From: Tubulanus polymorphus
Lineage: Eukaryota; Animalia; Nemertea
Assembly (NCBI RefSeq): GCF_964204645.1
Contig: NC_134025.1
Span: 15,624,001 to 15,688,000 of the forward strand
Reading direction: 5' to 3'
DNA: 64,000 nucleotides
Under the pieces are notes generated by a model, which was not told where the DNA came from, did not search any database, and saw only the letters and a program-made list of their open reading frames with translations. The position numbers were made by a program, and so were the translations under genes. Shown in pieces: positions 22,061-58,385 of this stretch; position 1 is the stretch's first letter, and each line of letters opens with the position of its first letter.

Positions 22061-22145
22061 AGTAATTGGAAGATGTGGGTTTCAGATCAGAGTACTAGAT
22101 TACTAGACACCACTCATCACCACAAGTAATTTTTTTTCCTTATAA

Positions 22146-25100
22146 ATGGGAGAGAGTGAGTACCAGACAGAAAACAATAATGTTAATAAAAATCAATATT
22201 ATTGTCCATATTGTAAAAAATACATCGATAAATCTAATAAATCTAAACATGAAAAATCTTCAAATCATATAAAAAATGTAATAGATTTTGAAACTCCAGA
22301 AAATTCCAATGAAAGAAAAGAACGATTAGAAAATATGAATGTGGATGAAATAAAATGTGAAGTTTGTAATGAATTTATAGTAAAAAGGAATTATAATAGA
22401 CATCTCGAATCACAAAAACACCATCAAAATTTGAGTAATAATGTTTTAGGAAAAGATTATTTTGATGATAAACCTCAAAAAGTAAAAAAACCAACTTCAA
22501 AAACTAAATCCATTTCAAATAAACCTTACGTGGAAAATGTTAGAAATTATATTGATTCACTAGAAATAAAAGATACAATTGAAATATTAGAAACATTACA
22601 TAGTAAAATTGGTCCTGCAGCTATTATATTTAGATTCTTTAAAGGAACAACAATAGAAGATTATAGTAAATTTAATGAAATAATAGAAAAAATACTAGAT
22701 TTGATAACAGATGTTGAATATCCAAAAATTAGAATCTCTGGGAAAGTAAGTTTTATAAAGTCAGAAGAAAAAATGAATTATAATATTCAAACACACTCTG
22801 AAGAAATAATTTCAAAAACACAAATATTAGAGAAGTTAGAAAAAATATTTAATAAATTTAAACGTCATATTGAAGAAAGATATTTTGAGGGTTCTGGCTT
22901 AACATTGAACGAAATTATATATTTAGATTTAAATGTTTATAATACAAAAAGGAATAAAACATCAAAAACTAATAAAATGTTTAAAAATGATTCAAACTTT
23001 ACAACAGAAAAGGATATTAAAGCATCATCTTATATTAAATTACTATTTACAACAAAAGCAGTAATAAATGTTCAAAATGAAGATAATAAATGTTTTCTAT
23101 GGTCAATTATTAGTTGCTTACATCCAACACAGGAAAATGTTTGTAGAATAACAGATTATCGGAAATATGAAACATTATATAAAATTGATCAATATCCAGT
23201 AACTATAAAAATGATACCCAAAATAGAAAAAATTAATAATTTAAAAATAAATGTATTCGAATTAATGCAATTACCAAAGACAAAAGGTGAAAATATTAAA
23301 GATTATACATTGGAAGCTTTATATTTAACAGAATATTATGATGATGAAAATGCTATAGATTTGTTATATTATAAAAAAGATGAAAATGAACATTATATGT
23401 GGTTAAAACAAATTGATTTATTCTTTAGAACAGAAAGTGATCATCATCGTAAAATTTATCTATGTAGAAAATGTTTATCTAAATTTATGACTGAGAATAC
23501 ATTATTAAAACATAAAGAATTATGTGATAATAAAGATTTTTGTAAATTAATAATGCCAACAGAAAAAGATTATAAATTGAAATTTACTAATCATAAATTT
23601 AAGAATATTGATCCATTTGTAATTTATGGGGATTTTGAATCGTTGAATAAAGAATTAACTGATCAAGATAGGAAAGAAATATATAACAAAAAGCAATTAT
23701 TAAAATCAATGGATAAAGGAAATGAATTAAATGAAGACACAATACAAGACCCACCAATTATAAATACAATTAAAAAAGTTCATCAAAGAGCTGCTGCTTA
23801 TGGAATTTATATAAAATCAAATTATCCCGAATTATATGAAAGTCAATATATTTCTTTTAGAGGTGAAGATGTAGATGATTTTTGTGACAAAATGATTGAA
23901 TTAGAAAGTGATTTTGCAAAATTATTAAACAAAAATAAAAGAATAGTCATGACAAAAGAAGATGAAATCGATTTTAATTATGCAACTCATTGTTGTTATT
24001 GTGAAAAACGTTTTTATTCATTTGATAAAAAAGTTAGAGATCATAATCATTTAAATTCTAAATATCGTGGAGCTGCTCATGAAGATTGCAATTTACAAGC
24101 TAAGAAAGTTAATTTCGTACCAATATTATTTCATAATTTATCAGGCTATGATACCCATCTATTTATAAAACAATTATCGGGAAAATTGGGCGCAATTAAT
24201 CAAGAAATAGAAGAATATAATGCTATGAATGGTGTAAATGTAAGAAAATATGATTTTAAACTATTAGCTAAAACATCTGAAAATTATATTTCATTTCAAT
24301 TTGGTTGCATTAGATTTTTAGATTCTTATAGATTTCTAGCAAGTTCATTAGATAATCTATCAAAAAGTTTAGTTGATAATGATTTTGTTATAACTCGATA
24401 TTATTATCCAAATGAACAAGATTTTAAATTATTGAGATATAAAGGCGCAATTCCTTATTCATTTTATAAAACGCACAATGATTTTAATGTAACAGAATTA
24501 TTAAAAGATCAATTTTATGATCAATTAAAAGAGGAGTATGTGAAAGACGAAGTGTTTAATAGAACATTAAATATTTGGAACCATTTTAAGATGAAAAATC
24601 ATGGCGAATTAGTTGATTTGTATTTAAAATCAGATGTTATGATATTGGCTGACATATTTGAAAAATTTAGAGAAGTTAATTTGAATCATTTTAATGTTGA
24701 TCCTTGTTATTGCTACTCTAGTCCTGGTTTAACCTGGCAATGTGGTTTAAAATATACAAATGTAGAATTAGATTTATTAAAAGAACCAGATATGGTTTTA
24801 TTATTTGAAAAATCAATTAGAGGTGGAATTAGTGGTGTTATGGGAGATAGATATTTTAAAGCAAATGATGAATGTAAATTATTATATATTGACGCCAATA
24901 ATTTATATGGTTGGGCAATGATGCAACCTCAACCATATAAAAATTTTATATTAACAGAAGTTGAAAATGATGATAAAACTAATTGGGAAAGCGCAATTAT
25001 GAGTTTAGAAGATGAAGCACCAATTGGTTATTTCTTTGTAGTTGATTTAGAATATCCTGAAAATATAAAGTTTAAAACAAGAAACTTACCTTATTGCCCA

Positions 25101-27217
25101 GAACATTTAACTGTAGATGATAGTTATTTAAGTGAATACCAGAAGAAAATAAAACCGAAAGATCATGTTTTTACAGAAAAATTAATACCTAATCAAAATA
25201 ATAAATACAATTATATTGTTCATTATAGAATGTTAACATTTTATCTAAAACAAGGAATGAAATTAAAGAAAGTACATAGATATATTGAATTTAATCAATC
25301 GAAGTGGTTAGAAAAATATATAGATTTCAATACTCAGCAGAGAACCATATCAAAAACAGATTTTGAAAAAGATTTCTTCAAATTAATGAATAATAGTTTT
25401 TATGGTAAAACATGTGAAAATATTAGAAATAGAAATGATATTGAATTAGTAAATAATTCTGAAAGATTAAGACATTTACAATCAAGTCCTAGATATTTAG
25501 GAAATAAAAGATTTGAAGATTATTTAACAGCAGTTTAATTAAAAAGAACGTCAATGAAATTTAATAAACCTATATTCATTGGTTCAACTGTTTTAGAAGT
25601 ATCAAAATTATTAATGTATGATTTTTATTATAATGTTTTACAACCACTTTTTGGGGAAAAGCATATTGAAATATTATATTTTGATTCTGTAACAGCTGAC
25701 ACCCCAATATTATTAAAATGTAATGATAAAATATTGATAAGAAGAATTTCAGAAATAATTCCAAAACAAAATGAATGTTATATTTCATATGGAGAAAAAG
25801 AATTAATACAAATAAATGGTTTAATGGACAAGAAATGGATGGAAAAAATTAAAGAATATTATTAGGCATAAAACAAATAAGAAAATCTATAGAGTTAGAA
25901 CTAAATTAGGATTTGTAGATGTTACAGAAGATCATAGTTTAATTAAACGAAATGGTGATGAAATAAAACCAACTGATATAAAAATTGGAGATGAATTATT
26001 ACATAAAAGATTTTTCCAAAGAATGAATCATATGTCATTTGATGAAATAATTGATAATATTTATAATATAGAACCCGAAACATTAGAAGAAAAAGAATAT
26101 TTTATCAAAGGATTTTTCATGGGTGATGGTTCAGCAGGTGTGTATAATTATGTTTGGGGTAATAAATATTGTTGGTATTATTGAATAAAGTTGGTTGTTT
26201 ATGCAATCAAGACTTGAAATTATTAGAAAGAATTAAGAAATTCTGTGAAGAAGTTTATTCACATAAAACATTCAAAATCATAGATGTTATGAAATCATCG
26301 CAATGTTATAGAATGCATGTGAATAATCCTAAAGATTTTGCTATAAAATATAATGACAAATTCTATATTCATGCAATAGTGTAAGTAATACTTCAACTAA
26401 AGAAAAGATAGTTCCAGATTATGTATTAAAAGCAAAAAATAATTTAAGAAAATGGTTCTTCATTGGATTCTACGCAGCCGATGGTACTAAAAGTTTCAAA
26501 AACCGCAAAACAATATCTTTAGCTCAAAAAGGAAAAGTTGCTATATCAGGATTAAATATATTATGCAATTCATTAGGCTTTAATATGAATATTGGATTGA
26601 TTAAATCTAAACCAAATTGCTTTAATTTAAGCCATGTAGAAAATGAGTTAACTGAAGAAGTTAAAGATTTATTTGAAATATATAACCCAACAGATTATGT
26701 TTATGATTTATCAACTGAAGATGGTACATTTAACTGTGGATTTCCATTAATAGCAGTCAATACTGACGCCTACATACTAAAAATCAAGACAAATGACATA
26801 ACAAAAGACTTAAAAACATTAAAACATCATTTTGATTTTAGCAATTATCCCAAAGATCATGAACTATTTAGCAATGATAATAAAAAGATTCCTGGTAAGT
26901 TTAAAGATGAATTAGGGGGTGATGAAATGATTGAATTTGTTGGGATAAGAAGTAAAATGTATAGTTACAGAACAAAAGATCATGAAGCTAAAAAGTTAAA
27001 AGGAATAACAAAACATGTGGTTGATAAACATATAGAATTTCAAGATTATATAAAGTGTTTATATAAATCAATTGTAATGAAACACAAAATGAATTGTTTA
27101 AGATCAGAAGATCATGAGATGTACATTAATGAAGTTGAAAAAACTAGTTTAAATCCATTTGATGATAAAAGGCATATTTTAGATGATGGTATAAAAACAT
27201 TACCTTATGGTCATTAA
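22146..27217 (+). pseudogene. polB: Protein-primed family B DNA polymerase (ZnF, putative TP, vOTU-like, exonuclease with EndoVII-like insert, polymerase) interrupted by an intein
   Basis: DNKCFLWSI/HYMW (OTU-like), [48 protein letters not shown]-[intein]-TD, PGKFKDE; nonsense codon at 25536. Confidence 0.92.
25686..26761 (+). mobile_element. Intein with a LAGLIDADG homing endonuclease (PolB motif-C site), frameshifted
   Basis: Block A SVTADTP; block B VDVTEDHSL (~25915-25941); blocks C/E FIKGFFMGDGS (26101) and FFIGFYAADGT (~26456); block F YVYDLSTEDGTF; C-terminal IAVN with +1 Thr; absent from the homologous site at 46498/46499. Confidence 0.93.
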
Positions 27218-27272: not shown

Positions 27273-28060
27273 TTAATTGTTCAGGTTCTTCTTCCATTCC
27301 ATTTTCTCATTTAAATAAAGTTCTATCTTGTTCCACATTTCATCTCGCTCTCTTTGTTTCTTTTTGTTTGTTAATTCATCAAATGGAATTATAATATCTA
27401 TGTTTAAATAATTTACAATCTTATTTAAAAAGAATTCATAATTAATTGAATCTGTTATTCTATTTTCCAAATGATACATTAATATTTGTGTAAATATTTT
27501 TTTTATATTTTCCATATCTTCTTCTGTTAATTTAGGTTTTTCATGATAATCGTTAAATAATAAATATAAATACCTTTTCTTTTGTTTTGTGTTAAATTTT
27601 GACGGAATAATTGTTTTTATAATATCTTTTTTAGTTATTTCACCATTTTTATTTTCTATTATTTTCATTTTTTCAAGCCATTGCTTATATTCTGGTGTAT
27701 GATCTTCTATAGAAAATATTTTAAAAATTTCATCAAGATAATTTAATTTTGGTTCTATGAGAAAATCTCTAGTTTTTTCTTCACCCAATACATTCTTTTG
27801 CCATCCACATTCATTACAAAATAACACAGTACCTTCTTGTCTAAAAGGTCGCATAACTAAATTGTGGACATTTTCGTTTATAATTTATTGGTAATAGATC
27901 TTCATTTAGCTCCTGGTATTTTCTTACGTTTTCTTTATGTTTTATTGTTCTATTATGTAGATTTGAATTACATGTTGTAATAATCAATTTACAATATTTA
28001 CAATAATATGTTTTTCTTGTTAATTCGTTATATTGTTTTTCTAACTTTTCAACTGTTTCA
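27273..28060 (-). pseudogene. Poxvirus/NCLDV late transcription factor VLTF3 (A2)-like protein with N-terminal zinc finger and zinc ribbon
   Basis: CPQ(F)...CNECG zinc ribbon across a frameshift at ~27850; C-terminal PKLTEEDMENIKKIFTQI...INYEFFLNKI...KKKQRERDEMWNKI resembles the VLTF3 pattern. Confidence 0.6.
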
Positions 28061-28161
28061 AATCATTGTTTTCTCGCGTTATTTTGGTTTTGTCGTTTTG
28101 TCGTAATGTCGCCCTCATTTGCATATTCGTGTTTTTTTTATCTTATCAGCCACCATACTAA

Positions 28162-29108
28162 AGCCTTAAGGTCGCGTAAAACTCGATAAACACTTCAAGC
28201 GACACAGCGAACGATCTCCTTTCCTCCACAGCGAAAGCTTACTCCGAATGTCAAGTGTGAGTCCAGCATACGGATAGGAGTGTGGTTTGTATACATGTAT
28301 TTAGTAAATACCTTGTGGATTTGACAATGATCGGTATGTACTGTAGGAAATATAGAGTATTGATGGTATTGATATAGACGTTGAAGCCCGCGGCCGAATA
28401 AAGTAATATATTTCTTTATTTTGATACCTCGTCGACATAACAGCTTTTCTCCGCTATATCTCTTCGGCGTGTTTAGTTTAGGCCTACGACTCCCCGGTAC
28501 ACTTATGATTTATCTTAGTAAATACACGGTTAATTTGGTAAAGAAAAATAGGTATTGCTAAACTAACTGCTTGACGCCCGCAGCCAAATCACTGGTAGTT
28601 ATAAATTAATTTGTACTCGATTTGATTCTCATGATGAGGAGAAACTCCCCGGAACGACGATGTAGTAACACACGTCGATTCGTCGTTGTTTACGGCTCGA
28701 CAGTGCTTTTAAAATCTAAAGTAGTAAATTTCCAGTGTATCGGTAATATGATTTGATGAGGAAAATGGGCTATTGTTAAAATCACTGTTTGAAGACCGCG
28801 ACTGAATGTGAAGTCTGCGGCAATAAATTAGTTCATTTATACTTGAATTGATAATCGAAGTGACAGTCGGCCTGCGGGTTGATTTCGGGATGACGACTCG
28901 AAAAACATGTCGCCCCATTGAATGGGGCTAAATTTTCGATGTTTACGGCCCGACAGCGCTTTTGTAACGATGATTCGTGAAAAAACACGCGGGCTAGTGC
29001 GATCTCAGTGAGCTGAACGATATTATATGGATTGTAGATGAAACAGCGGTAAGGTAACAAAGCCTATGTTCTTTTGGTAAAAATAGTGTGGAAGAAAATA
29101 ATAATAAT
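28162..29108. repeat. ~940-bp repeat body, copy 1
   Basis: Highly similar to 36255-37197. Confidence 0.85.
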
Positions 29109-42236: not shown

Positions 42237-42369
42237 GTGAGTATCCATGCCCACCACCTTCCCGTACACAGTAGGCTACGCCTATACTAAGTCTTGTATT
42301 GTGCTCGTCAGAAAAAAAAAGATTCCGGCTACTACAATCACAGGGGCTCGTATCATAAGTTTGGGGGTG

Positions 42370-42778
42370 AGTAATAGGGGTAATGGGCTTTCAAATCAAA
42401 GGTCGAACGGTCGAGCTTATTAAAAACAAAACATTAAAAGTAATTTAAAACTATAATATATTTTCATAACCGTGTGCATTTTATATTATAACTAAATATT
42501 TATTCTAAGATATTAATAATTCAAATTTTAAAAGCATATTGTATTAAATCAATTGGTCGCTCCGCTTCGCTACCGCTCCACTCCGCGACCGATTGATTTA
42601 TTTACAATACACAAATTCATATAATCAAATATATTTTAATAATAATAATTATTCTATTATTCAACTGAAATGCACACGGTTTTGAAAATATATTATAGTT
42701 TTAAATTACTTTTAATATTTGTTTTTAATGAACTCGACCATTCAACCTTTAACCTGAAAGCCCATTACCCCTATTACT
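42370..42778. repeat. Left terminal imperfect palindrome (409-nt hairpin)
   Basis: AGTAATAGGGGTAATGGGCTTTCA...TGAAAGCCCATTACCCCTATTACT; apex AATTGGTCGC-loop-GCGACCGATT at ~42551-42594. Confidence 0.92.
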
Positions 42779-43010
42779 CTTAAAATAATCATATACATGA
42801 ATAACATTTAAATTGACAGATTATTCAATATAAAAGTGTAAGCTCTTATAGAATAGATATATAGATATATTTACAACATTATTTCAATATTCATATTTGT
42901 ATGAGTTAGATTTTTAAACATTAAAAGTGTCAGTAAAGTGTGATTGAAATAATTCATATATAAATCATTGAACTTCTAAAATCAATTAAAAAAAAAAAAT
43001 TAGTATTAAA
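42779..43010. repeat. Left subterminal inverted repeat (pairs with 60275-60495)
   Basis: For example, TAAATCATTGAACTTCTAAAATCAATT and its reverse complement at ~60299-60325; the repeat runs almost to the ATG of both terminal genes. Confidence 0.88.
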
Positions 43011-46000
43011 ATGGAAGCAAATAAGTACTACTGTCCAACATGTAATATCAATATACATAAATCCCAAAAATCAAGACACAATAAAACTAAAATACATTTA
43101 GAGAATAAATTGAAATTAGAATATAAGGATGATATATTAGAAACTAAATTAGAAGAATTAAAGAATGAAAAAGAAACATATAAATGTGATACATGTAATC
43201 AATCATTCAGTGATAAAAGATATTATAAAGAACATTTAAAATCTAAAAGTCATATTGGAAATATGAACAATGATATTTTAGGTGAGGATTATTTTGATAA
43301 AGATAATGATAAGAAACAGAAGACAATTAAAAGCATAAAAAATAAATTAAACAATAGAAGACCATACATGGAAGATGTAAGAAAATATATTAATTTATTG
43401 GATAATAAAAAAGATATAGAGACAACCGAAGCATTTAAAAGTGATATTGGTCCAGCAGCTATTGAGTTTAAATTTCATAAAGGAAAAACATTAGAAGAAA
43501 ATAAAAAACATTTAGAAAATATGAAAGAAATAATAAAAATAATAACTGATGTTGAATATCCTAAAATAAGTATTTCATCAAAAGTTAAATTCATAAAATC
43601 TGAAGATAAACCAATATATAATATAAATTCTCATTCACAACATATTATTTCAAAACAATATATAGATGATAACTTAGATAAATGTTATAATGAAGTAAAA
43701 ACTAAAATAGAAGAGAAATATTTTGATGGATCTGGTTTAATATTTGATGAAATAATATTTATGACTTTACATGTTTATAACACAAAATATAATAAGTTAA
43801 CTAAATCAAAACCAATTGATGAAAATAATGTATCATATTATAAAGAACCAGATATTGAAGCATCAAGTAATATTAAACTACCATTTAAAACTAATGCTGT
43901 AATAAATGGTCAAAATTTTGATGATAAATGTTTTCTATGGGCTATAATAAGTTGTTTACATCCTGCAATTTATAATATTTGTAGATTAACTCATTATAAA
44001 CCATTTGAAAATAATTATAAGATAGATAAGTATCCTGTTAGAATTAAAAACGTCCCAAAGATAGAAAGAGATAATAATTTAAGAATAAATGATTGATTTA
44101 ATCAAATTACCAAATACAAAAGGTAACAACATAAAACATTATACATTAGAACCTTTATACCTATCAAAAGATTATGATTCAAATGATGTTATAGATATAC
44201 TATATTATGCGAATCATTATATGTGGATTAAACAAATCGATTTATTTTTTAAATCAGAAAATGATCACCATAAAATATATCTTTGTAGAAAATGTTTACA
44301 TAGATTCAGTAATGAAAGTACATTATTAAATCATAAACAATTATGTGAAAATCATGATTATTGTAAATTAGTTTTACCAAATGAAAAGGATAAAATATTA
44401 GAATTCAAAAAATATGATTACAAAAATAAAGTACCATTTGTAATATATGGAGATTTTGAATCATTAAATAAAGAATTAACTGATCAAGATAGAAAAGAAA
44501 TATATTATAAAAGAAAAAAATTAAATTCTAATGAAAATGATTTTTCAGATGAACCACCAATAACAAATACAATTAAAAAGATCAGCTGCTGCTTTCGGGT
44601 TATATATTAAATCTGATTATCCAGAACTAATTGAAAGTGAATATTATAATTACAGAAATGAAAATGTTATCAATCATTTTTGTGACTTATTAATTGAATA
44701 TGAAATAGGATTTAGTAAATTATTGAATACAAATATAGAAATTATAATGACAGAAGAAGATAAAGAAGAATTTGCGTTTGCAGATAAATGTTATTATTGT
44801 GAAAAGATATTTAATTATAAAGATAAAAAAGTAAGAGACCATGATCATTTGAATGGAAAGTTTAGAGGCGCTGCACATGAGAATTGTAACTTACAAGCTA
44901 AGAAAATCAATTTTGTACCAGTTATATTTCATAATCTATCAGGATATGATGCACATTTATTTATCAAACAGTTATGTCATAAAATAGAAGAAATTAATAA
45001 TGAAATAGAAAGATTAAATTCAAATAGATCAAAAGATAAAATACCAACTCATAAATTTAGACTGTTAGCTAAAACATCTGAGAATTATATATCATTCCAA
45101 TTTGAGTGTTTAAGATTTATAGATTCATATAGATTTTTAAATAGTTCATTAGATAACTTATCAAAATCATTAGTTGATGATGAATTAAAAATATTAAAAC
45201 AACACTACCCAAATAATGATGATTTTCAATTAATGAGATATAAAGGAGCAATTCCATATTCTTTCTATAAAAATCATAATGATTTTAACATAACTGAATT
45301 ATTGAAAGAACAATTCTATGATGAATTAAAAAATGAATATGTTAAAGATGAAGTATATAATAGAACATTGAATATTTGGAATCATTTCAAAATAGAAAAT
45401 CATGGGCAATTAGTAGATTTATATTTAAAATCAGATGTATTATTATTAACCGATATATTCGAAAGGTTTAGAGATGTAAACCTAAAATATTTCAATATTG
45501 ATCCTTGTCATTGTTATTCTAGCCCAGGTTTAACATGGGATTGTGGATTAAAATTAACAGATATAAAAATGGATTTGTTAACAAATATAGATCAATTATT
45601 ATTATTTGAAAAATCTATAAGAGGAGGAGTTTCAGGTGTATTAGGTGATAGATATTTCAATGTAAATGATAACCCTGGATATAAGTTATTATATATAGAT
45701 GCAAATAATTTGTATGGTTGGGCAATGATGGAACCACAACCTTATGGAGTATTTGAATTAACTGAAGTTTTACAGAATGAAAATAATGATACATTTGATT
45801 GGAAGAAAAGAATCCTAGATATTGCAGATGATTCAGATACTGGTTACTTCTTTCTTGTAGATTTAGAATATCCTGAACATATTAAATTTAAATCTAGAAA
45901 TCTAGCATACTGTCCAGAACATAAAACTGTTACTCATGAAGAATTATCAAATTATCAAAAAAGAATTAAACCCGAAAATCTTATTCATACAGAAAAGTTA

Positions 46001-47104
46001 ATGGTAACTCAAGAAGATAAATATACTTATGTAGTACATTATAGAATGTTAAAGTTTTATCTAAAACAAGGAATGGTTCTAAAAAAAGTACATAGATATA
46101 TTTCATTTAGTCAATCTAAGTGGTTAGAAAAATATATAGATTTTAACACCAAACAGAGAACTGAAGCTAAAACTGATTTCGAGAAAGATTTCTTCAAGTT
46201 AATGAATAATGCATTCTATGGTAAGACTTGTGAAAATATTAGTTATAATGATATTGAGTTAGTTAGTAATGGTAAAAGAATTAGACATTTACAAGTATAT
46301 CCTAAGTTCATTGGTAACAGAATATTTGATGAAAATTTAGCCGCAGTTAAAATGAGAAGAACATCCATGAAATTTAATAAACCAATCTATGTTGGCGCTT
46401 CAGTTTTAGAATTATCAAAATTACTAATGTATGAATTCTATTATAATGTATTACAACCACTTTTTGGAGAAATACATATAGAAATATTATATTTTGATAC
46501 AGATGCTTACATATTAAAGATAAAAACTAATAACATAACTGATGATTTAAAAACATTAAAACATCATTTTGATTTCAGTAACTATCCTAGAAATCATGAA
46601 TTGTTTAGCAATGATAATAAAAAAGTTCCCGGTAAATTCAAAGATGAATTAGGTGGTGAAGAAATGATTGAATTCATCGGTATTAGATCTAAAATGTATT
46701 CATATAAAACTTAAGAACATGAAGCTAAAAAGTTAAAAGGAATAACCAAAAGTGTAGTAGAAAAGAATATTAATTTCAAAGATTACATCAATTGTATATT
46801 CAATGAAGAAGTTAGAAAACATAAGATGAAATGTTTAAGATCTGAAGATCATGAAATGTTTATTGAAGAAATTGAAAAGATAAGTCTAAACCCATTTGAT
46901 GGTAAAAGATATATTTTAGATGATGGAATTCATACAGTTGCTTATGGTTGCAATTTAGATGAATACTTAAAATTTAAAAGAGAAGAAACAAAAGAGAACG
47001 AGATAATGAAAAGAATTCTAACGTGTTCATCAAATTTTAATAAAAATATGTATTATAAATGGAGAGTAAACAAACACACAGTGAGAACAATAAATCATTT
47101 CTAG
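43011..47104 (+). pseudogene. polB: Protein-primed family B DNA polymerase, intein-free allele (frameshifts at ~44090 and ~44580, stop at 46712)
   Basis: ZnF; DDKCFLWAI; IYGDFES; [19 protein letters not shown]; YIDANNLYG; [10 protein letters not shown]; uninterrupted YFDTD. Confidence 0.93.
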
Positions 47105-47412
47105 ATAGAATAAAAGATACTTCAAATGTCAAATCAGTAGATTATAAATTTAAGAAGTTAAAAGAATTAATAATCCATAAGAAATATCTAATTACAAATA
47201 TTGATACAGTAACTAACAAATATGGAGATAAATTAGTTATACACGTAGAATATGAAGGATTAAAAGGAAATACATATAAATTCAGAACATATTTACCGGA
47301 TAGATTTCATAGATTATCAAGTGAAGACTTAGAAGAATTATGTTCTGGTTGTTTCTATTTCGTATACAAAGGTAAGAATGAAAAAGGGCACCATGAAATA
47401 GATTTCGAATAA
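47059..47412 (+). CDS. Small Polinton protein, possible OB-fold ssDNA-binding protein
   Basis: FKKLKEL...Y.I...VTNKYG...TYLPDRF pattern directly downstream of polB. Confidence 0.5.
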   Translation: MESKQTHSENNKSFLDRIKDTSNVKSVDYKFKKLKELIIHKKYLITNIDTVTNKYGDKLVIHVEYEGLKGNTYKFRTYLPDRFHRLSSEDLEELCSGCFYFVYKGKNEKGHHEIDFE

Positions 47413-47429
47413 GAAAATATGTAAAATAA

Positions 47430-48188
47430 ATGGTAGAATTAAAAGAATACAGAATATTTGTAGATTCTAGAAAACTTACAAATTATAAATCTCATAATTT
47501 ACTAGTTCAATTAGATAGAGAATTCAAGAATTGTGTAGATTTAAAATTAGTTAATATAAGTTTATGTAATTCTTTTTACAATGTATTGGATAAAACTGTT
47601 GAACATAGAGTCTTTTTAATTCATGATAGAAATAAAAGTAAATGGTTTCATCTTTATCTTAAACCAGGATTATATAATTTAGATACATTAGCGCAGGAAA
47701 TTAATAGAAGAGCTCGGTTGAAAATGGGTGCATCTGCTGGATTTGGATTAAGACTGATTAAAAGTGATAGCTCCGATAAAATAAGAATGAAATTAGGTAA
47801 TGAAGATCAACATCAATTTCTAGTTAGAAAACCTTTAGCTAAAATTTTAGGAATAACCCCAGATGTAAGGATACGCAATGCTGATGCTCCACCAAATATA
47901 ATGCCTTTTACACACTTTTATATTTATTGCAAATTAATCGATCCTACAAAAACATTCGAAGCAACTAAAGATATAACTTGTAATTCTGGTTTAATTAACA
48001 TTTTACCATTGAAGAATGTTAAAGAATTTGGAACGCAAATAAATTATAATTTAACAGAATGTGATTTCAAACCATGCATTCCTCGTTTTAATAATTTTAA
48101 ATTAGAAATTAGAAATCACAATGGATACTTAATTGATTTAAATAATTTCCCTGTAATTTATGAATTAGTTATAAGATGTAGAGAGTAA
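47430..48188 (+). CDS. Minor capsid protein (penton, single jelly-roll)
   Basis: IFVDSR...VQLDRE...LVNISLCNSFYNV, LKPGLY, FYIYCKLI, LEIRNHNGYLIDLN...YELVI. Confidence 0.75.
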   Translation: MVELKEYRIFVDSRKLTNYKSHNLLVQLDREFKNCVDLKLVNISLCNSFYNVLDKTVEHRVFLIHDRNKSKWFHLYLKPGLYNLDTLAQEINRRARLKMGASAGFGLRLIKSDSSDKIRMKLGNEDQHQFLVRKPLAKILGITPDVRIRNADAPPNIMPFTHFYIYCKLIDPTKTFEATKDITCNSGLINILPLKNVKEFGTQINYNLTECDFKPCIPRFNNFKLEIRNHNGYLIDLNNFPVIYELVIRCRE

Positions 48189-48205
48189 TTTTTTTCACTA
48201 TATAA

Positions 48206-48550
48206 ATGAATATAACTGTTGGACCGAGTATATGTTTTGGTTTTGATTTTAAACATGGCAAAGAAATGAGAATTAAACTAAATGATGTAATTACTGATAT
48301 AAAAAGTAAATCATTTAACAATTCATCAATGATTAATAAAGAAAATTATAATAAAGAAAAAGTAATTGATTTAATTAAATCACCTTTAGAATATTATGAT
48401 TTAAATGAAGATGGAATTATCGATGATATTAAAAACATATTATCCAAAATATATGATAATCATAAAAGTAGTAATGAAATAAATGTTGAATTAATCATCA
48501 CTAAGATAACTAAATATTTTGATGATAGTAATTTTTTGATAAATAAATGA
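48206..48550 (+). CDS. Hypothetical Polinton protein
   Basis: Intact ORF preceded by the T-run/TAAATG motif. Confidence 0.6.
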   Translation: MNITVGPSICFGFDFKHGKEMRIKLNDVITDIKSKSFNNSSMINKENYNKEKVIDLIKSPLEYYDLNEDGIIDDIKNILSKIYDNHKSSNEINVELIITKITKYFDDSNFLINK

Positions 48551-48768
48551 GTGATAATAAGTGGATAATAACTGGATTATATAATGGCGCATTACTATCA
48601 GTTGGAACTGTTGGTTATTCAATGGTTTTAAAAAAAGTATTCAAAATGGGAAGTGTTAATGTTGATAGATTTGATATAAATGATATTTTAAAATCAACAT
48701 TAGCAGTTACTTTATCTAATTTAACTATTGATTATTTAGAAAAACAAAAATATATTCCTCCCATATAA
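48547..48768 (+). CDS. Small hydrophobic virion-type protein
   Basis: 73 aa, two hydrophobic helices, TAAATG start. Confidence 0.6.
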   Translation: MSDNKWIITGLYNGALLSVGTVGYSMVLKKVFKMGSVNVDRFDINDILKSTLAVTLSNLTIDYLEKQKYIPPI

Positions 48769-48792
48769 ATGTGTAATTTTTTTACTAAATAA

Positions 48793-49215
48793 ATGGCTTC
48801 TGCAATTATAACTATTATAGGATCGGCAATTGTTAACGCTTTAACATTTACTGGTGGCGGTTATTTATTTAAGCATATTGATAAAAATGGTTCATTAACA
48901 GAACAAAAAAGACATAACTTAGCATTAGAGAAATATAATAAAGCAGCAGAAGAATATAGAGGAAAGAGGCAAAACTATATGGATTACATTAATAAAGAAT
49001 TATATGATCTGAAGATTTCACATAGAGATTTTCAATCAGTTGATGATGCAATGAGTTTATATAACGCAGAAACAAATAAAGAAAAATTACATCTACATAA
49101 ACCTACAATATCAGATTATTATACCCCAAGTAATGAACAGAAGAAGTATGAAATAATTTGGATTTTAGGCGGAACTGTTATTGTTATATTTGTAGCGTAT
49201 AAGTTTACTAATTAG
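48793..49215 (+). CDS. Polinton membrane-associated protein
   Basis: MASAIITIIGSAIVNALTFTGGGYLF...EQKRHNLALE; C-terminal transmembrane segment. Confidence 0.65.
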   Translation: MASAIITIIGSAIVNALTFTGGGYLFKHIDKNGSLTEQKRHNLALEKYNKAAEEYRGKRQNYMDYINKELYDLKISHRDFQSVDDAMSLYNAETNKEKLHLHKPTISDYYTPSNEQKKYEIIWILGGTVIVIFVAYKFTN

Positions 49216-49236
49216 TAATTTTTTTTTGCTAAATAA

Positions 49237-49662
49237 ATGGATGATAATATTGATATTATTCCTCATGATATAAATAAAACTGAATTAAAAACATATTTAG
49301 AAAAACAAATATTAGAATTTGAAAGTGACTTAAAAGTTAAAAAGAAAAAATATTTAAAAAGTAAAATTATATATTATTTTATTATTCGTGATTCAGTTAC
49401 AATTAGTTCTGTAATAACATTTCTAGCAATATTCAGTCCAATAACACCATTAGCTATATCAATTGGTGTATTAGGATTAAGTTCAAGTGTTTTAACCGGT
49501 ATAAGTTCAAAATTAAATATAAAAAGTAATAAAGAAAAAATTAAAACTAATATAAAAGAAATTAATAAATTAAAGAATACACTAGATTATATAATAAGTT
49601 TAAATGGTCATATAACAGTTGAAGAACAAGATATATTATTAAAAGAATTAGTTAATTATTAA
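49237..49662 (+). CDS. Two-TM coiled-coil protein
   Basis: Central hydrophobic hairpin flanked by Lys-rich coils. Confidence 0.6.
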   Translation: MDDNIDIIPHDINKTELKTYLEKQILEFESDLKVKKKKYLKSKIIYYFIIRDSVTISSVITFLAIFSPITPLAISIGVLGLSSSVLTGISSKLNIKSNKEKIKTNIKEINKLKNTLDYIISLNGHITVEEQDILLKELVNY

Positions 49663-49678
49663 TTTTTTAATTATATAA

Positions 49679-50960
49679 ATGGGGTTTCCAAAAGCTTTCC
49701 AATATAATAAATCAATTAAATATAATATTCCTGCAATAGATTTTAAGAAAAATATTACATATAGAAATGAAGTTTTAAATTCATTAATTGATTTATATAT
49801 TTATGTTACTGAAAGTAATAATTTTCACGTAAAGATGGAAAATATATTTCATGTGTATACAATTTATTTCAAAAATTTAAAATCTAATATAAAGTATTGG
49901 CAGAACCAATTAAATTTTGCTGTTTATTGCGCAACAACAGGATGTGGAATAAGTTGGAATGATCATTTAAACAAACCAAGTTTACCATTGATGGTATTAC
50001 TTTTTAGATTTCATATATATTTTCAAATAAAATTAATATTAGATGAATTAGAATGTCCTTTACCAAGTTCAAAATATTTTAAAGAATTGAATAATAATAT
50101 TAATTTTCCTAAGTTTTATAAAATATGTAATGAATTTAATATTAATTCAAATAAAGATTTTAGAGCAAAAATTGGAACAATGGGTGGATTAGGAATATTA
50201 TATACTAAAGAATTTGGAAAAATAATGACAAATTCAGATATAAGAACACTAAACTGGAATGAATTACCAAAATATTATAATAATGTACAACAACAAAATA
50301 ATAATGGTTAGGTTAATTTCATTTTAGAAAATAGTGAAGGTGTTACTGTAGCTGGTATACAAAGAATAAATCAATCTATTAGAACTTATTTGATATGTAT
50401 TTTAGGTGCGCAAGTTGAAACAAGATCCCCAATAATTGGAAATGATAACACTTCATTCGATGCGCAGAAACAATTCAAAGTATTATTTGAAGATTCAATT
50501 CATAATGATAAAAATAGATCTATTCCAGAAAACATTGTAAGATATCAAAATTATTTAGATAAATCACATATTAGATTAAATTATTGTATAGGCCCTAATC
50601 TATTAATTATTTCTAATGTATTAAAGATGGGAAATATAATTGGTTACAATAATCTAATTAAAACTGCAACAATAAATAATTCATTTGGATTAAATGATAT
50701 AAATAAAAAGATTATTACTGCTCCAAAATTAATTGAAGGTGAAAAAAATTAAAAACATATTCAATCAACAGAAACTAAAACTAATAATATTAAATTGAAT
50801 AATGATTCTAAAATAAAAGATTACAATACATCAGAAAATATTAGAACTGATAATATTCAACATGATATAATTAAACTAAATGATGATAATAAATCCCATG
50901 AAAATGCTAAATTAGCTTTAACTTGTATAGGAATTGTAATCGGAGGAATATTATATTTTA
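49679..50960 (+). pseudogene. Conserved Polinton protein (WQNQLNFAVYCATTGCG motif) interrupted by stops
   Basis: ORFs 49679-50311 and 50390-50752 are in the same frame, separated by a TAG; C-terminal transmembrane segment near 50910-50960. Confidence 0.65.
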
Positions 50961-50984
50961 AATTTTAATTTTTTTATTATTTTA

Positions 50985-52437
50985 ATGGCAGAAGGTGGAG
51001 GAGATTATGAAATGGAAAACAGGGGAAATAATGATGATGCCAATACTAACAATGATGATTATATGACTGCTGATACTAATATTGATAATGATAATGATAC
51101 AACATATAATTCTAATTTAGCAGAGAGTGGTTCTAAAGCCCCATCAACAGATGAACATGATAGAAGAACTAGATCGAGAATACCTATTGAAAATTTAGAC
51201 CAAGGTTTAGAAAGAGAAAATATAGAAAATTATGAATTTATGTATGATTTTCAACGTGTATTTAAAGATTCTGGATATAATATAAATGATAGAGGCGCCA
51301 GACGTTTAGTAAAAGAATTAAAGTTTTTAGATGGTGAATATTATTATAAATTGAAAGATGATTATTATATTAACATCTCTTAAAATTCAAGACAAAATAT
51401 TAGCAAAATCAACTTTGCTTAGGTTAGACCTATCTAAAATTAAAAGAATAAGAAATAGTAATGAACCAGAAGATGTAACACAAGAATTAATTGATAAAAA
51501 TGAAAATGTATTTAAACAAAGAATTAAAAAATTATTTGAAACAATCAAAGATAATCCAGAAGCAGAAACAACTTCCGAACAGAATAAAATTTTCAAAACT
51601 AGTAAACTTAAATCAAACACTGAAGTTCAAACTGAAAAACTTTTACCGAAGGGATTACTTGATTCAACAGATCAAGAAATAGAAGCTTTAAGTATGTTTT
51701 CTAAAAAAAACAATTAGAGAAATAATAAGTATACGAGATGAAGCTGATAAAATTGCACGCGAAGAACATATTAGATATAATAAAATTAAACCTTTAGAAA
51801 ATAAATTATTTGACACCAGAAAAGAATTAGAACAATTAAAATTAGATAGAGAATTTAAAGTTATTGAAGAAATTGAATTTAAAAAAAGAAATGCATATTT
51901 AGAAAAAGAAATTGATGATTTAGAATATAACATAGAATTTCAGAAAGAAAAAATGAAATTATTATTAAATCATATGATTATTGTATTAATAGATTAAAAG
52001 TTGTTGTTAAAGAGTTAATACTGAAACCAAATTCTGAAATATCACTAAAAGATAGAATAAAATTATTATTTAAGTTTGAAGGAATCACAATTCTTTCAAT
52101 TCTAACAGCTGTAACTATGTTATTTACAACAATTGGTTTAGCAATATCAAATTCTTTGAAATCTACTCCTACTCCCAATAAACCAGATAAACCTCCAAGC
52201 AATAATTCTATACAAGATAAAGTTAAGGATGGTTTAAAGAAATTAGCAAAATATTTATGGGAACTATCAAAGAAATCTGCTGCAGCATTACCAGGAGTTA
52301 TTGCATCAATTGTTGGTTTTATATTGAAATCTGCAGGAAACATTATTAACTTTGCTGCTGAACATATTATTTTATTTTTAATTACAGTTGTAAGTGCTAT
52401 TATTTTTGGATTAGTAAACATGATAAAAAATAAATGA
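50985..52437 (+). pseudogene. Coiled-coil protein with C-terminal amphipathic/TM helices (putative membrane-active virion protein), frameshifted
   Basis: Fragments 50985-51383, 51358-51717, ...DRIKLLFKFEGITILSILTA...LAKYLWELSKKSAAALPGVIASIVGFI. Confidence 0.6.
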
Positions 52438-52457
52438 TTAATTTTTTTGTTAAATAA

Positions 52458-53705
52458 AAGAGTGGGAGTTATATCAATCCTTCTAAGAATCATAGAATAT
52501 CTAATGCTATTAAAGCAGAAAGATCACATCATATAATTACACATAATCCTTCTAATATTAATCCTGATGAAACTTTATATGTTAGAATTCCTCGATTAAC
52601 ACAAAATACTTTTTATGTTCCAAATAGTAATTATTTATCAGCCGATATAAAAGTAATCGGTAATAATAATAATTATGTTGTTGATAATGTTGGAAGGTAT
52701 TTGATTAAAAAGTTAACAATAAAGATTGGTCCAGAAACCGTTTTCTCATTAGATGATTATAATTTATTTATGCATTATAAAGATTTATGGTTAACTAAAG
52801 AAAATAGAAATAATATGATATTTCAAGGCATCCAATCAGAAAACCAAAATAAATTAAGATCAGGAGCTAATGACGCAATAGCAACTCGCACCGCAGATAA
52901 TTTCATAAAAAAGATTTATGGAAGCAAATATAAAATTCCATTAGACTTTGAATTGATAAATAACAATGCACCTTTATATAAATATGCAATTCAAGAAGAT
53001 GTTATATTCGAAATAACATTTGTTCCTGTAAATGGAATTGTATTATCTAGCGTTGTTAAAGATATGGGTTATAAATTATCGAATATATGTTTAGAATATG
53101 ATACAGTAACTGATGAAAATATTTCAAGTATAATTCAAACTAAATACAATCAAGGATTTTCATTATTATATGATTATATTGATAAATTTAAAACTGTAAC
53201 TATTAATGCAAATGATGAAATTATTAATGAGAGTATTAACTTCCCAAGAAGATCTATTAAAGGTATATTAATATTTTTTACCATTGCAACATATACTAAT
53301 GGCGCAATAAATGTTGATAATTATTATAATCCTGAAATAACAAAAGTAGAAATAACTATCGAAGGAATAGCAAATAAAATATTTTGTCAAGGAATGAGAA
53401 TGATAGATCAGTGGCCAGAAATTAGAAAACATTTTATGAATGAAAAAGTAAAATCATCTGAAAATTGTAATATTAATCAAATTGATTATTATACCGGTAA
53501 TAAATATGCATTATGGTTAGATTTTAGAACAACAGAGGATAATTCATTACATGGTTCTGGAAAAAAATTACAAAATACAAAAGATGGAATACAATTATTC
53601 ATGACAAAGAATAAAGGAATCAAACATTTTAAAATGCATATTTATATTATATCTGACGCGCAATTAAATATTGTAAATTCTCAATTGAATAGTGTTATGT
53701 ATTAG
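52458..53705 (+). CDS. Major capsid protein (double jelly-roll); start codon apparently mutated ATG to AAG
   Basis: Open frame from 52458: SYINPSKNHR...THNPSNINPDETLYVRIPRL...VDNVGRYLIKK...YKIPLDF...YKLSNICLEYD...LWLDFRT...LHGSG. Confidence 0.8.
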   Translation, partial: KSGSYINPSKNHRISNAIKAERSHHIITHNPSNINPDETLYVRIPRLTQNTFYVPNSNYLSADIKVIGNNNNYVVDNVGRYLIKKLTIKIGPETVFSLDDYNLFMHYKDLWLTKENRNNMIFQGIQSENQNKLRSGANDAIATRTADNFIKKIYGSKYKIPLDFELINNNAPLYKYAIQEDVIFEITFVPVNGIVLSSVVKDMGYKLSNICLEYDTVTDENISSIIQTKYNQGFSLLYDYIDKFKTVTINANDEIINESINFPRRSIKGILIFFTIATYTNGAINVDNYYNPEITKVEITIEGIANKIFCQGMRMIDQWPEIRKHFMNEKVKSSENCNINQIDYYTGNKYALWLDFRTTEDNSLHGSGKKLQNTKDGIQLFMTKNKGIKHFKMHIYIISDAQLNIVNSQLNSVMY

Positions 53706-53737
53706 AATTTCAACTTTAATAAAAATTTATATAATAA

Positions 53738-54259
53738 ATGGAAGGAGGTAAAGTATATAAACATATTCCATACATCGATACACATGCAAATAATGATGGT
53801 TTATATTATGTGATACCTTGTAATATAGCTTTGATATTTGATCCTATTTTCAAAATTTATGAAACTAAACTAATAGAAATAGATAATAATAAAAGTGAAG
53901 TTGTTGATGATTTAAGTAATGTAATACCTTCTACATCTAATAATGTAATACCTACTACATCTAATAATGTAACACCTACTACATCTAATAATGTAATACC
54001 TTCTACATCTAATAATGTAATACCTTCTACATCTAATAATGAAATAATATTAAATTATGGTGAAAATAAAAATTATTGTGGATATTGTAATGGTGAATTT
54101 TCAAACGCTCCATCTAATTGGAATAAACATATGAATACAAAGGTACACATTACTAATGCGGTAGAAAGGATGAAAAAGTATAAAAATAAAACAACTATTG
54201 ACGATGATACGGTAGAGAATTTGAATAAATTGTTAGGGTCTGATAGTGAAAGTGATTAA
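53738..54259 (+). CDS. Zinc-finger protein with five 9-aa (SNNVIPSTS-type) repeats
   Basis: 27-bp tandem repeats at ~53913-54040; CGYC...HMNTKVH. Confidence 0.7.
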   Translation: MEGGKVYKHIPYIDTHANNDGLYYVIPCNIALIFDPIFKIYETKLIEIDNNKSEVVDDLSNVIPSTSNNVIPTTSNNVTPTTSNNVIPSTSNNVIPSTSNNEIILNYGENKNYCGYCNGEFSNAPSNWNKHMNTKVHITNAVERMKKYKNKTTIDDDTVENLNKLLGSDSESD

Positions 54260-54672
54260 AATATTAATTATATTTAACACAAATAATAATATTGGTGGAA
54301 AATTGTATAAAATAATAGTAAATAAAAAGGGGGTTTTAAGTATTTAAGGTATTTAAGGTATCTAATACATATCTAATACATATCTAATACAATCTAATAC
54401 ATAAAATATCTTATTTTATAAACTGATATTCATATGGAAATTGAAACCTCAGTAATAATAAATAACCTTTATTATTTTCAAACTTATTCATATATTAGTT
54501 GAAAAAATAAAAATAAATTGGTTGAAAATTGTATAAAAAATATTTATTTTAAAAAAGGGGGTTTTAAGTATTTAAGGTATCTAATAGGATATCAGGTATT
54601 AGGGTATCTAATAGGGTATCAGGTATTAGGGTATCATGTATTAGGGTATCTAATACATAGGTATATAACTAG

Positions 54673-55284
54673 TTATTTTATATATTTATATTCATATGGA
54701 AATTGTAGTCTCAGTAATAATTTTGAACCTTTATTATTCTTTAATTTATTCATATATTCATCATGTTATTCAGTAGGTATAATTTGATTTTCTTCCAATG
54801 ATTGTTGCATAGATTTTCTATCTTTGTTATAAAATAAAACTAGAAATCTAATGTTTTCTCTAAAGTCTTTAACAATTGAATTATATTTTTGATTTAAAAC
54901 CCATGTTGTAATCCCAAAATGTCTCCCAGAGAAAGCTAGATAACATAACTCACTTTCTCTAACTTTTGAATCATGTAAATTTGCGCAATCATCTATGATA
55001 AATAATGTAGTTGATCCTTTATAAGTATCAATTGCTATTTTTATACAATTATCTAAATTTTCTTTTACTGTTTTAGGATTTAATATAATAAACTTTTTTA
55101 TCTTAACTATATCTCTATTATATGTTTTATTCATTTCATAAGTAGGACAAAATAATATTATATTATTAAAATGATTCTTATAAATAGTTTCTAACAAGTC
55201 TAATATGAAATGTGTTTTACCACAATTGGTTACTCCAGTAACTTACATATTATGCGGTTCAAATATAAATAAATCTTTATTCAT
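54673..55284 (-). pseudogene. A32/FtsK-like DNA packaging ATPase
   Basis: Walker A GVTNCGKT, Walker B FIIDD, GRH, NQKY; in-frame stops just before Walker A and at 54766. Confidence 0.88.
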
Positions 55285-56376
55285 TTATTCTTTTAATTTT
55301 ACTAGATAAAATCCATTCATTAAATTTATCATCATATCCCTATATTTCACCAAAGAATACTTTTTTACTTTAAGAGTTTTTGTTTTCAATACTTTTTCTA
55401 TTTTGTATTCTATTTCATCTGGATTTGGTACAAGTGATAATTCTTGTTCATAGAAATATCCTAATATTTCTTCATCTTTTAGATCTTCTAGTTTATAAAC
55501 AAATGGTTTAGTTAATATTATCTTTTTAATCTTGAATATTTCTTCTGTAAAATTTGGGGTATAACCTTTATAAAATGTTTTTCTATATTTAGATATTCTA
55601 ACGTGTTGTCCAATTTTAAATTTAGGTTCTCCGAAATCATGTGTAACAAATGCTCCATATAAATTATTCCAAACTATTTCTGAATTATCTTCTTTTCTAG
55701 CTTGTATAGGTTTCATACCAATACTTGAATGTTTAGAATTATTATAACCTTTCACTAAATCATCTAACACATCGATATATTTATATGTTTCATTAGCAGT
55801 AAAATATTTCCACATTCTAGTTTTCAATGTTTTATTAAATCTTTCTATAATAGATGCTTTTTTATCTGAATGTGTTGAAAAATAATCTACATCGTTATCA
55901 GATAATAGTTTTTTAAAATGTTTGTTATAAAATTCCTTACCTTCATCAAATTGTATCTTATCTGGAATAGCTTCTTTAAATATATTCTTAAAAGCGTTTG
56001 TAACTTCTATTCCGGTTTTATTTTTGATTGGAATTGACCATGCGTATCGACTGAATATATCTATAACATTTAATATCCAGAAATATCCTTTGTTGTATTC
56101 CTCTAAGTTCTTCATGTCAATTAAATCTGCTTGCCATTGTTAATCGATATATGAAACCATAACTTTTCTTATTAAATAAGTTTTATCCATTTTCTTGTGG
56201 ATTTGATATGTTGGTTGATTTGGTAACCATGATTTCAACTCACTATATTTTATATTTTCATTATCAGATTTAATTTTACTCCATAATTCTGAAACGTTAG
56301 AATATGATACTTCACTTTCTGGGTTATAATATAACTCTCTTAAATATTGTTCTTTTTTCGTCTTATTTTAATCCAT
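55285..56376 (-). pseudogene. Retroviral-like (rve) integrase with C-terminal chromodomain
   Basis: YYNP..., WQADLIDM, IDIFSRYAW, QFDEGKEF, IERFNKTLK, HSSIGMKP, chromo YKIEKVL; two nonsense codons in the N-terminal part. Confidence 0.9.
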
Positions 56377-56735
56377 TAATAATAGTTTAGATTTAGTTTC
56401 AATGGCTTTATGATTTGACTTATTTTCTGGTATAATAGGTTTATTGTCATTGGAATCATATTTATCATCAGATTTGAATTTTGATTTATATATTACACCG
56501 GATAATATGATAATTGTTACTAATCCAATTGTAATATATAATTTATAATTACTTCCAGCATTAGAAGAATCAGATGGATTATTACTTGAATCAATATCAG
56601 CTAAAGTCTGTGATTCATTTATATCAGTTAATTTCTTTGTCTTAGCTTTTTTAATTCTGAAGATCTTTTACCTAATTCTCTTGCCCATTTAATTTGTTTC
56701 TCGGATCTAGCCTTTTTCTTAACTCCATCACTCAT
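56377..56735 (-). pseudogene. Small basic protein with a transmembrane segment, frameshifted
   Basis: MSDGVKKKARSEKQIKWARELGKRS... then YITIGLVTIIILSGVI. Confidence 0.5.
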
Positions 56736-57330
56736 TTATTTTAGTTAATTTTTGTTCTGATTCATTTTCTGTTTCACTGTTTGGTTGTAGTACATCTGTT
56801 TCGTTCTTACCTGATTTATATTCCATAGGCTTGATATTCGAAAATGTAATGACGCCAGTAGAAATTAATGTCATAACCGATCCTAATTGAAATGAAGCAT
56901 AACCAACCCATTTTTGTAATTCAGTCATAACTAAATAGTCATTTTTCAAATCACTATATAATTTATTTTCATCATTAATTGGTATTAACTGGTTACATAA
57001 CTTAGAATAACATTTGACAATACCATCTGAAATAGAATCATTTATTCTAGCTGATCTTGCTTCTTCATAAATCTTAAAATATTTTATTACTTTATCGGGT
57101 TTCATAGAGTCTAATTCTTGAAAAGTAATAATTCTATTTAAAAACTCTTTAGTTTTTCCACCGGCAATCAATAGTTCTAGATGATGCTTACAATATAAAT
57201 AGTATTCATAATCTATATTACAATTAACTTGAGCACAATTAGTTACAACTGTATCTTTATTATCACATATACCCAAATCATCTAATGTTTTTTCAATATC
57301 AATACTATTCTTATTAGTTTTCTTTGACAT
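56728..57330 (-). CDS. Conserved hypothetical Polinton protein
   Basis: Intact 200-aa ORF (LELLIAGGKTKEFL...DLKNDYLV) with the T-run/TAAATG motif. Confidence 0.65.
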   Translation of the reverse strand: MSKKTNKNSIDIEKTLDDLGICDNKDTVVTNCAQVNCNIDYEYYLYCKHHLELLIAGGKTKEFLNRIITFQELDSMKPDKVIKYFKIYEEARSARINDSISDGIVKCYSKLCNQLIPINDENKLYSDLKNDYLVMTELQKWVGYASFQLGSVMTLISTGVITFSNIKPMEYKSGKNETDVLQPNSETENESEQKLTKINE

Positions 57331-57631
57331 TTATATTAGAAAAAAAAGCAAAGAAGATATTATAAGTATTCTTCAAATGATACTAGCTAGTTAAAGCTAA
57401 AGAATTCTAGTATTGACTACTGATACTAGCTATTTGAATTTAAAGAATTTCTATTTGAATCTATTCAAAATATAAAGTATTCTCTTTTTGAAAAGAAAAT
57501 ATTAAAAATATAATAGAATTCACTAGCAGTTGAAGTTATTGTTTTTTTAATATATTTTATTTGAATTCTATTTGATATCTCACTACTTTTGTTTATCTAT
57601 TAGGAGCAGTAATTATAACTGTCCAGATAAG

Positions 57632-57847
57632 TCATTTCGGATCCTTGATATCAAATTCCTCAACGTATTGTTCATTATTTGGATCATTGTTCCATTGATC
57701 AATAAATTTCTTTGCATTTGTTAACTGTTCTAAATATAACTGTAAATCTAGTTTATTAGATTTGATTTGATTTTCTTTCTTTTCAAGAGGTCTTAAATTT
57801 TTCAAATTCCAAACAAGTTTTTTATTGTATTCATCATTCCTTTCCAT
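57632..57847 (-). pseudogene. Truncated duplicate of the HNH protein C-terminus
   Basis: YNKKLVWNLKNLRPLEKKENQIKSNKLDLQLYL is nearly identical to the end of 59621-60274. Confidence 0.8.
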
Positions 57848-58052
57848 TTATAAATCAAATTTTTATTAAAATTGATTAACATTTTAGAATCCTCTTCCAT
57901 TTCTTCGACTAACGTCATCCTTTTTCATTCCTCGCTGCTTTTTATGTCATTTCGGATCCTCGATAATAAATCCTCAACTGAAAATCAATTCAACGAAACG
58001 ACTGGTGGAAATATTATTTCATAAACACATATATTTATTATGTAAATTTTAG

Positions 58053-58385
58053 CGATCGATAATAGAACAATGGAGAACAATAGAAAAGCGGTCCAATCGG
58101 ACCGGTTATTGCGCAATACACAGTTATATTTTTATTCTGTAAACTACAGCATTCAAACATAGAAATGTAACCAATCAATATTGAGCAGCTGTTTCCGTCA
58201 ACAACGATCAATAATAGAACAATGGAGAACAATAGAAATGCGGCTAATCGGACCGGTTATTGCGCAATACTTAGTTAACAGTAAACAATCAATACAGAAC
58301 AACCGCCGCCATTAACAACGATCAATAATAGAACAATGGAGAACAATAGAAAAGCGGTTCAATCGGACCGGTTATTGCGCAATAC
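58053..58385. promoter_or_regulatory. Three ~66-bp direct repeats with Sox-like (AACAAT) and C/EBP-like (ATTGCGCAAT) motifs
   Basis: Units at 58053, 58205, 58319. Confidence 0.55.

Follow-up and report, generated by a model that had tools for sequence, protein, structure and literature searches.

In poxviruses, A2 (VLTF-3) is one of three late transcription factors and works with the viral RNA polymerase. VLTF3 had been called an NCLDV core gene in an earlier sequence-only reading of the DNA studied here, which is right, although the accessible parts of the literature also place it in polintoviruses (PMC11131425, PMC8502044, bioRxiv 10.64898/2026.06.19.733378), MELD viruses, some PLVs, and mriyaviruses (PMC11253617). 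In stony-coral polintoviruses, as at our locus, VLTF3 is a patchy accessory gene of integrated elements with pPolB and integrase (PMC11131425). The available portion of that source cites Krupovic and Koonin 2016 for a VLTF3-bearing polintovirus subgroup and already proposes exchange from giant viruses for polintovirus VLTF3. Domain layout, promoter motifs and inteins are not covered in that portion, and orthology of the coral gene to ours is putative. MELD viruses, Zephyr-group PLVs, and mriyaviruses are likewise small dsDNA viruses carrying VLTF3, but from the text available they are mostly free or protist-associated. Mriyaviruses are described there as also having VLTF2, and none was recognised here by scans that were not dedicated to it. 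Together with virophages, entomopoxvirus-associated PLVs (PMC11296320) provide a precedent for animal Polinton relatives riding on a poxvirus, although VLTF, promoters and TAAAT are not mentioned in the accessible part of that paper. The comparison, made on partial texts, also took in PMC8715426, PMC12945077, PMC11071296, and bioRxiv 10.64898/2026.10.13.758929. In the literature searched, which mostly excluded subscription papers and supplements, we found no description of the finger fusion, the TAAATG starts of animal Polintons, or the pPolB intein reported below; the gene is apparently a known kind of cargo in a zinc-finger fusion undescribed so far.

The window, that is, the whole stretch of 64,000 nucleotides analysed, contains at 27273-28062 what is, as judged from its sequence, a divergent VLTF3 homologue inside a dead Polinton fragment. 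Its retrotransposons and Polinton gene set mark the window as eukaryotic DNA, likely animal. The features are as follows.

About 22120 to 28060: element A, an A+T-rich Polinton fragment of ~6 kb.
22123..22148, plus strand: T-run and TAAATG start of the pPolB gene, in a poxvirus-late-like layout.
22146..27217, plus strand: pPolB of element A, a protein-primed family B polymerase (PF03175, E 2e-17).
25686..26761, plus strand: broken LAGLIDADG intein of about 359 codons, at polymerase motif C.
27273..27884, minus strand: downstream frame of the VLTF3/A2-like gene, 203 codons, with the second half of the zinc ribbon and the helical VLTF3 core.
27841..28062, minus strand: upstream frame of the VLTF3/A2-like gene, 73 codons, with a U1-type C2H2 finger and the start of the ribbon.
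About 27916-28011, minus strand: the U1-type finger, CKYC..H..H (Pfam zf-U1, PF06220, E 7e-7).
28060..28700, extending beyond 28700, no strand: high-copy host repeat, with a GC step and a 92% match to 36254-37232.
42369..60683, no strand: element B, also A+T-rich, a related Polinton encoding pPolB, an rve integrase and an A32-like ATPase.

The VLTF3-like gene is convergent with the element A polymerase, whose stop lies at 27217, and both motifs by which it had first been recognised, INYEFFLNKI and KKQRERDEMWNKI, lie inside the 203-codon frame. The sequence-only reading had described a single ORF with a C2H2 finger and a CxxC...CxxC ribbon. The convergent arrangement, the motifs and the finger were real, but the coding region consists of two overlapping frames, the break falls within the zinc ribbon, and three ribbon cysteines are readable in the window (one ahead of the break, and the CNEC pair beyond it). 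Aligned to a 697-aa orthologue, P0032, the pieces correspond to residues 278-324 and 340-518, and they are collinear in both this protein and a second intact orthologue, P0040; the two frames therefore represent one gene. The upstream frame has neither a start codon nor a promoter, and the 5' part of the gene is cut by the host repeat at about 28060, where GC rises. The neighbouring pPolB is likewise interrupted: it has an in-frame stop, and its intein contains frameshifts. Element A, a 6-kb fragment, contains the protein-primed PolB but no integrase or A32-like ATPase, and no terminal inverted repeats were found for it, whereas element B has them.

Raw DNA reads of the same species showed a depth of 244-295 over the VLTF3-like gene, compared with about 62 on the left flank, a reference that may itself be repeated, and about 3000-4000 on the host repeat, compared with about 270 on the gene. 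Beyond 28059, 115 reads continued into different A+T-rich DNA. At the ribbon break, two rows of 50 and 55 of the 128 reads differed from the window in length, and the in-frame stop of pPolB was absent from 223 of 243 reads. Together with the missing start codon and the cut by the host repeat, these reads indicate that the window copy is a decayed, truncated member of a multi-copy family. Being frameshifted and without its 5' part, this copy cannot act.

To assess the identity of the gene, we relied mainly on a profile of 23 VLTF3 proteins, all Pfam-positive, from which the window protein and its orthologues were left out. Most of the 23 had been gathered with a profile holding the window piece as one of 11 rows, and PF04947 was found in all 23 independently. 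The window piece scored 62.6 bits, the best of 1060 window frames, over profile positions 20-202 of 225. None of 1000 shuffles exceeded 5.7 bits, none of 1000 motif-keeping shuffles exceeded 20.5 bits, and the piece still scored 30.2 bits when the motif was masked. In a profile-profile comparison (hhalign) with a 15-row alignment of poxvirus A2 proteins, which had been retrieved by motif scan, the match was 94.8% (E 4.8e-8, 167 columns). The ESM Atlas assigned the piece 0.96 at a low recognition value, and Pox_VLTF3 clusters (about 200-215 aa) accounted for 28 of its 30 hits. Full HMMER searching yielded 38 proteins. The ribbon Cys and the core Phe, Tyr and Trp residues were conserved in at least 90% of the 50 alignment rows.

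The likeness to poxvirus A2/VLTF-3 (PF04947 and PF08792) comprises a ribbon followed by a helical core, collinear over the 167 columns, the INY.FFL.KI motif, and a terminal Trp. Unlike A2, the window piece falls below the Pfam model; it is only 22-28% identical to the sampled VLTF3s, and the intact orthologues are 446-707 aa long (224 aa in A2) with four extra Cys/His fingers. Pfam Pox_VLTF3 (PF04947, curated cut-off 25 bits), a check that had been proposed for the homology, gave no match for the window piece, nor for P0032, P0040, P0066 or P0067. A profile of 72 long giant-virus VLTF3s failed to detect the piece (E 1.4), and a narrow profile of 22 poxvirus sequences gave 19.8 bits, which fell to -0.9 with the motif masked and was equalled by one of 1000 motif-keeping shuffles. 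A word-indexed protein search with the piece yielded none of 217 candidates, a locus search counted two relatives but no loci in viral contigs and none in metagenome contigs, and a sequence search of the PDB returned weak unrelated matches only (best E 0.028).

The predicted fold pointed towards VLTF3. Folded with a 50-row alignment, the piece reached a pLDDT of 88; a single-sequence prediction without alignment reached 42 and was not used. Of the eight BFVD matches at E<=0.001, five were named VLTF3 or late transcription factor, two were unnamed, and one was an exonuclease. Cowpox and entomopoxvirus VLTF3 models ranked first and second (E 6e-6 and 8e-6; best TM 0.66), a match that is partly circular, since the model rests on an alignment containing VLTF3s. 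Profile, language-model and fold searches thus supported the homology to VLTF3/A2 that had been recognised from the motifs. Against solved structures, a Foldseek search of the PDB returned nothing at E<=0.001, and TFIIB, Brf, cyclins and the Rb pocket were matched at Z 5.4-6.1, with 85-103 residues aligned at an rmsd of 3.1-4.8. Nuclear-receptor domains, which are unrelated helical folds, scored equally well (Z 6.2), and none of these matches reached Z 8.

P0032 (697 aa) was 49% identical to the downstream piece over 180 aa and 47% to the upstream piece over 47 aa, while P0040 (446 aa) was 37% and 38% identical, respectively; the orthologue E values were 3e-48 and 4e-25. A further protein search with the orthologue alignment returned P0032 and P0040 alone. 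Both have all four ribbon cysteines, and four Cys/His fingers precede the ribbon in each of P0032, P0066 and P0067 (P0032 cluster), and P0040. At locus L247, the P0032 gene and a pPolB gene are arranged tail-to-tail; this pPolB is open over 1336 aa and shares 72% identity with that of element A. At locus L248, the 5' end of a gene 96% identical to that of P0032 follows a block of genes matching element B, and the locus also carries an integrase, split by a stop, and an ATPase. A deoxynucleoside kinase gene (PF01712, E 2e-31) adjoins the VLTF3-like gene there, at 9287-9928. Because its position beside pPolB is conserved, the gene is best regarded as an accessory gene that a Polinton subfamily has long inherited, not a fresh capture. 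The sequence-only reading had spoken of a captured factor; a capture is at most ancient, and a recent one is excluded by the conserved context in a relative whose pPolB is 72% identical. Searches of viral and prokaryote collections with P0032, the pPolB piece, and the presumed-capsid alignment gave no matches.

Two other origins were considered for the gene: a fortuitous resemblance in an A+T-rich frame of low complexity, or a recent, isolated capture by this one copy. The missing Pfam match, the E value of 1.4 with the 72-protein profile, and the dependence of the narrow profile on the motif would fit such an origin. Both are refuted by the broad profile with its controls, the orthologues, and the conserved position beside pPolB, and we regard them as highly improbable. 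Identity as a VLTF3/A2 homologue, together with inheritance as a Polinton accessory gene, is very likely.

The phylogenetic tree was built from 54 rows (LG+G4, unrooted), including six named chordopoxvirus proteins, 14 of the 72 long giant-virus proteins, and 33 of the 36 proteins P0030-P0065; the fragments P0051, P0061 and P0064 were left out, and the sampling did not extend to asfarviruses, mriyaviruses or the polinton VLTF3s already in print. One clade (100/98) united the window piece with P0032 and P0040, and its long branch lay outside both the poxvirus clade (98/89) and the group of long giant-virus proteins (100/99). Judged from these sequences, this clade is nested in no sampled virus family. 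The proposed comparison with NCLDV families thus gave the gene a clade of its own, in a tree where long branches meet and where a grouping with poxviruses was not rejected (AU p 0.085). Within the same tree, P0053, P0056, P0060 and P0062 formed a clade (100/96) of VLTF3-like proteins of 276-305 aa that had no PF04947 match, and about 22 short A2-type proteins (among P0030, P0031, P0033-P0057) lay near the poxvirus clade, suggesting, from their placement, undescribed pox-like viruses.

Element B was said to have no such gene at this position, which was borne out: there is no VLTF3-like gene anywhere in it. Two of its ORFs were tried as candidates and rejected, one (53738-54259) with a weak profile score through its zinc finger only and one (58481-59209) without a clear family; the latter encodes 242 aa, and its Atlas hits were uninformative. 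Positions 52458-53705 of element B, where there is no Pfam match, presumably encode the major capsid protein.

TAA directly precedes the first ATG in 12 of the 24 ORFs of element B, compared with 55 of 743 ATGs (binomial p 3e-8). The comparison of promoters and gene presence covered L247, L248 and element B; in L247 and L248, TAA precedes the ATG at 14 of 17 listed starts, that of the P0032 gene included, compared with 24 of 300 and 30 of 352 ATGs, and the three exceptions are antisense frames in two cases and an internal ATG in the third. Seven window starts (six in element B and that of the element A pPolB) have a T-run a few bases ahead of TAAATG. A second layout, with a TTTTAATAAAAA-like A-run before TAAATG, occurs for example at 47059, 53738, 57847 and the P0032 gene. 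Since T at position -3 is a poor context for a eukaryotic start, translation does not explain TAAATG. A T-run followed by TAAATG is the layout of vaccinia late promoters (PMC5294985, accessible part), and in poxviruses and yeast VLEs, transcripts from TAAAT-type initiators carry 5' poly(A) leaders (PMC6211774, accessible part). The T-run and A-run layouts recall the late and intermediate classes of poxvirus promoters. The gene had been described as consistent with TAAATG promoters. The starts are real, but element B, which has no VLTF3-like gene, shares them, and this weakens the link to the gene; the promoters are thus independent of the gene, which is not needed in cis.

The intein matches giant-virus PolB inteins in length, motif position and sequence; among nine loci, the best four showed 46-52% identity across about 119 aa and 36-39% across about 125 aa. 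In element B and L247 this site carries no intein. Intein invasions are the subject of a general remark in the available text of PMC11071308. From sequence likeness, the intein and the starts suggest contact with large DNA viruses, and neither depends on the VLTF3-like gene. These clues name no single helper, since the relatives of the intein are giant-virus PolBs and the starts are poxvirus-like. An insert resembling Endonuclease VII was also seen in pPolBs, at 44564-46714 of the window and at 2138-6148 of L247 (PF02945, E 3e-5 and 4e-3).

For the intact gene, our best explanation, which we put at somewhat below an even chance, is that it tethers the late machinery of a co-infecting large virus to the TAAATG promoters of the element. 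The TAAATG starts would be promoters read by a viral RNA polymerase, and the scans recognised no RNA polymerase encoded by the element. The zinc fingers, which resemble those that open the element's own pPolB at its N-terminus, would bind element DNA, and the VLTF3 domain would dock into the initiation complex of the helper and so bias it towards the element. Such an optional boost fits the absence of the gene from element B. Contact with a helper would also agree with the deoxynucleoside kinase gene at L248 and with the occurrence of PLVs alongside entomopoxviruses. Redirection of a helper's late transcription, one option of the sequence-only reading, is thus plausible. Against tethering, the domain is so far from the sampled VLTF3s that the fit to the helper's complex may be lost, and VLTF3 need not work with a viral polymerase, because it is also found in viruses without RNA polymerase (PMC12085832, accessible part).

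This last point bears on another reading, possible but somewhat unlikely, in which the protein is an autonomous late activator that would use the nuclear RNA polymerase II of the host to turn on genes of the element itself. Families without the gene, such as element B, would then be supplied in trans or transcribed more weakly, and supply in trans is possible with a gene that is multi-copy in the species. From the portions available, a phycodnavirus without RNA polymerase encodes VLTF3 (PMC12085832) and mriyaviruses of 35-45 kb retain it (PMC11253617). The order of zinc ribbon and helical domain is a TFIIB-like layout, and TFIIB, Brf and cyclin chains were found at Z 5.4-6.3, but the cyclin-fold matches were tied with unrelated helical folds. 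Moreover, starts that overlap the ATG and lack a 5' leader are the layout of poxviral and yeast-VLE polymerases, and contact with giant-virus DNA is suggested by the intein.

dN was 0.36-0.40 for the VLTF3-like gene compared with 0.10-0.16 for pPolB; dS was saturated in this A+T-rich DNA, and dN/dS was not used for selection. Faster evolution and a patchy presence among related elements would suit a diverged VLTF3 acting as a decoy that sabotages late transcription by the helper and shields the host. However, faster change is usual for accessory genes, the window copy is decayed, and the core VLTF3 residues are conserved. The element's own genes, with their late-type starts, would also suffer from a block of late transcription. 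The suggestion that the factor could antagonise a helper virus thus conflicts with these starts and found no support of its own, and we consider it unlikely.

A repurposed DNA-binding protein with no role in initiation, for example one that binds termini in replication or packaging, is less probable still. The resemblance of its fingers to those of pPolB and the large added regions of P0032 would be in keeping with such a function, but the entire unit of ribbon and core is conserved in order, and we know of no replication- or packaging-type role for any VLTF3.

Returning to tethering, a broader possibility, which we regard as less likely than not, is that this Polinton subfamily, likely of animals, consists of satellites of a pox-like or giant virus, as its late-type starts, intein and four-finger VLTF3 fusion would suggest. 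Every gene would be placed on a start of the poxvirus late type, the intein would have come from a giant-virus PolB, homing from one polymerase family into another, and the four-finger fusion would draw the helper's late RNA polymerase onto satellite DNA. If this is true, a transcription-hijacking factor would be known from a Polinton for the first time, and the presence of a large DNA virus still to be found in the host would be revealed. The question bears on whether animal Polintons replicate alone or need a helper virus, and an intact orthologue, poxvirus-late-like starts and a giant-virus-type intein make it concretely testable. The locus also reveals a VLTF3 lineage that Pfam misses, and it shows that a VLTF3 match in animal genome data is not necessarily the sign of a giant virus.

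Two further structures were observed in the window. The hairpin ends of element B, at 42369-42779 and 60496-60683, are long fold-backs, each opening with AGTAATAG. At 13228-21267, reverse-transcriptase ORFs belong to an inverted duplication that is perfect over 2108 nt and includes tandem copies of 804 nt; this is either a very recent duplication or an assembly artefact.
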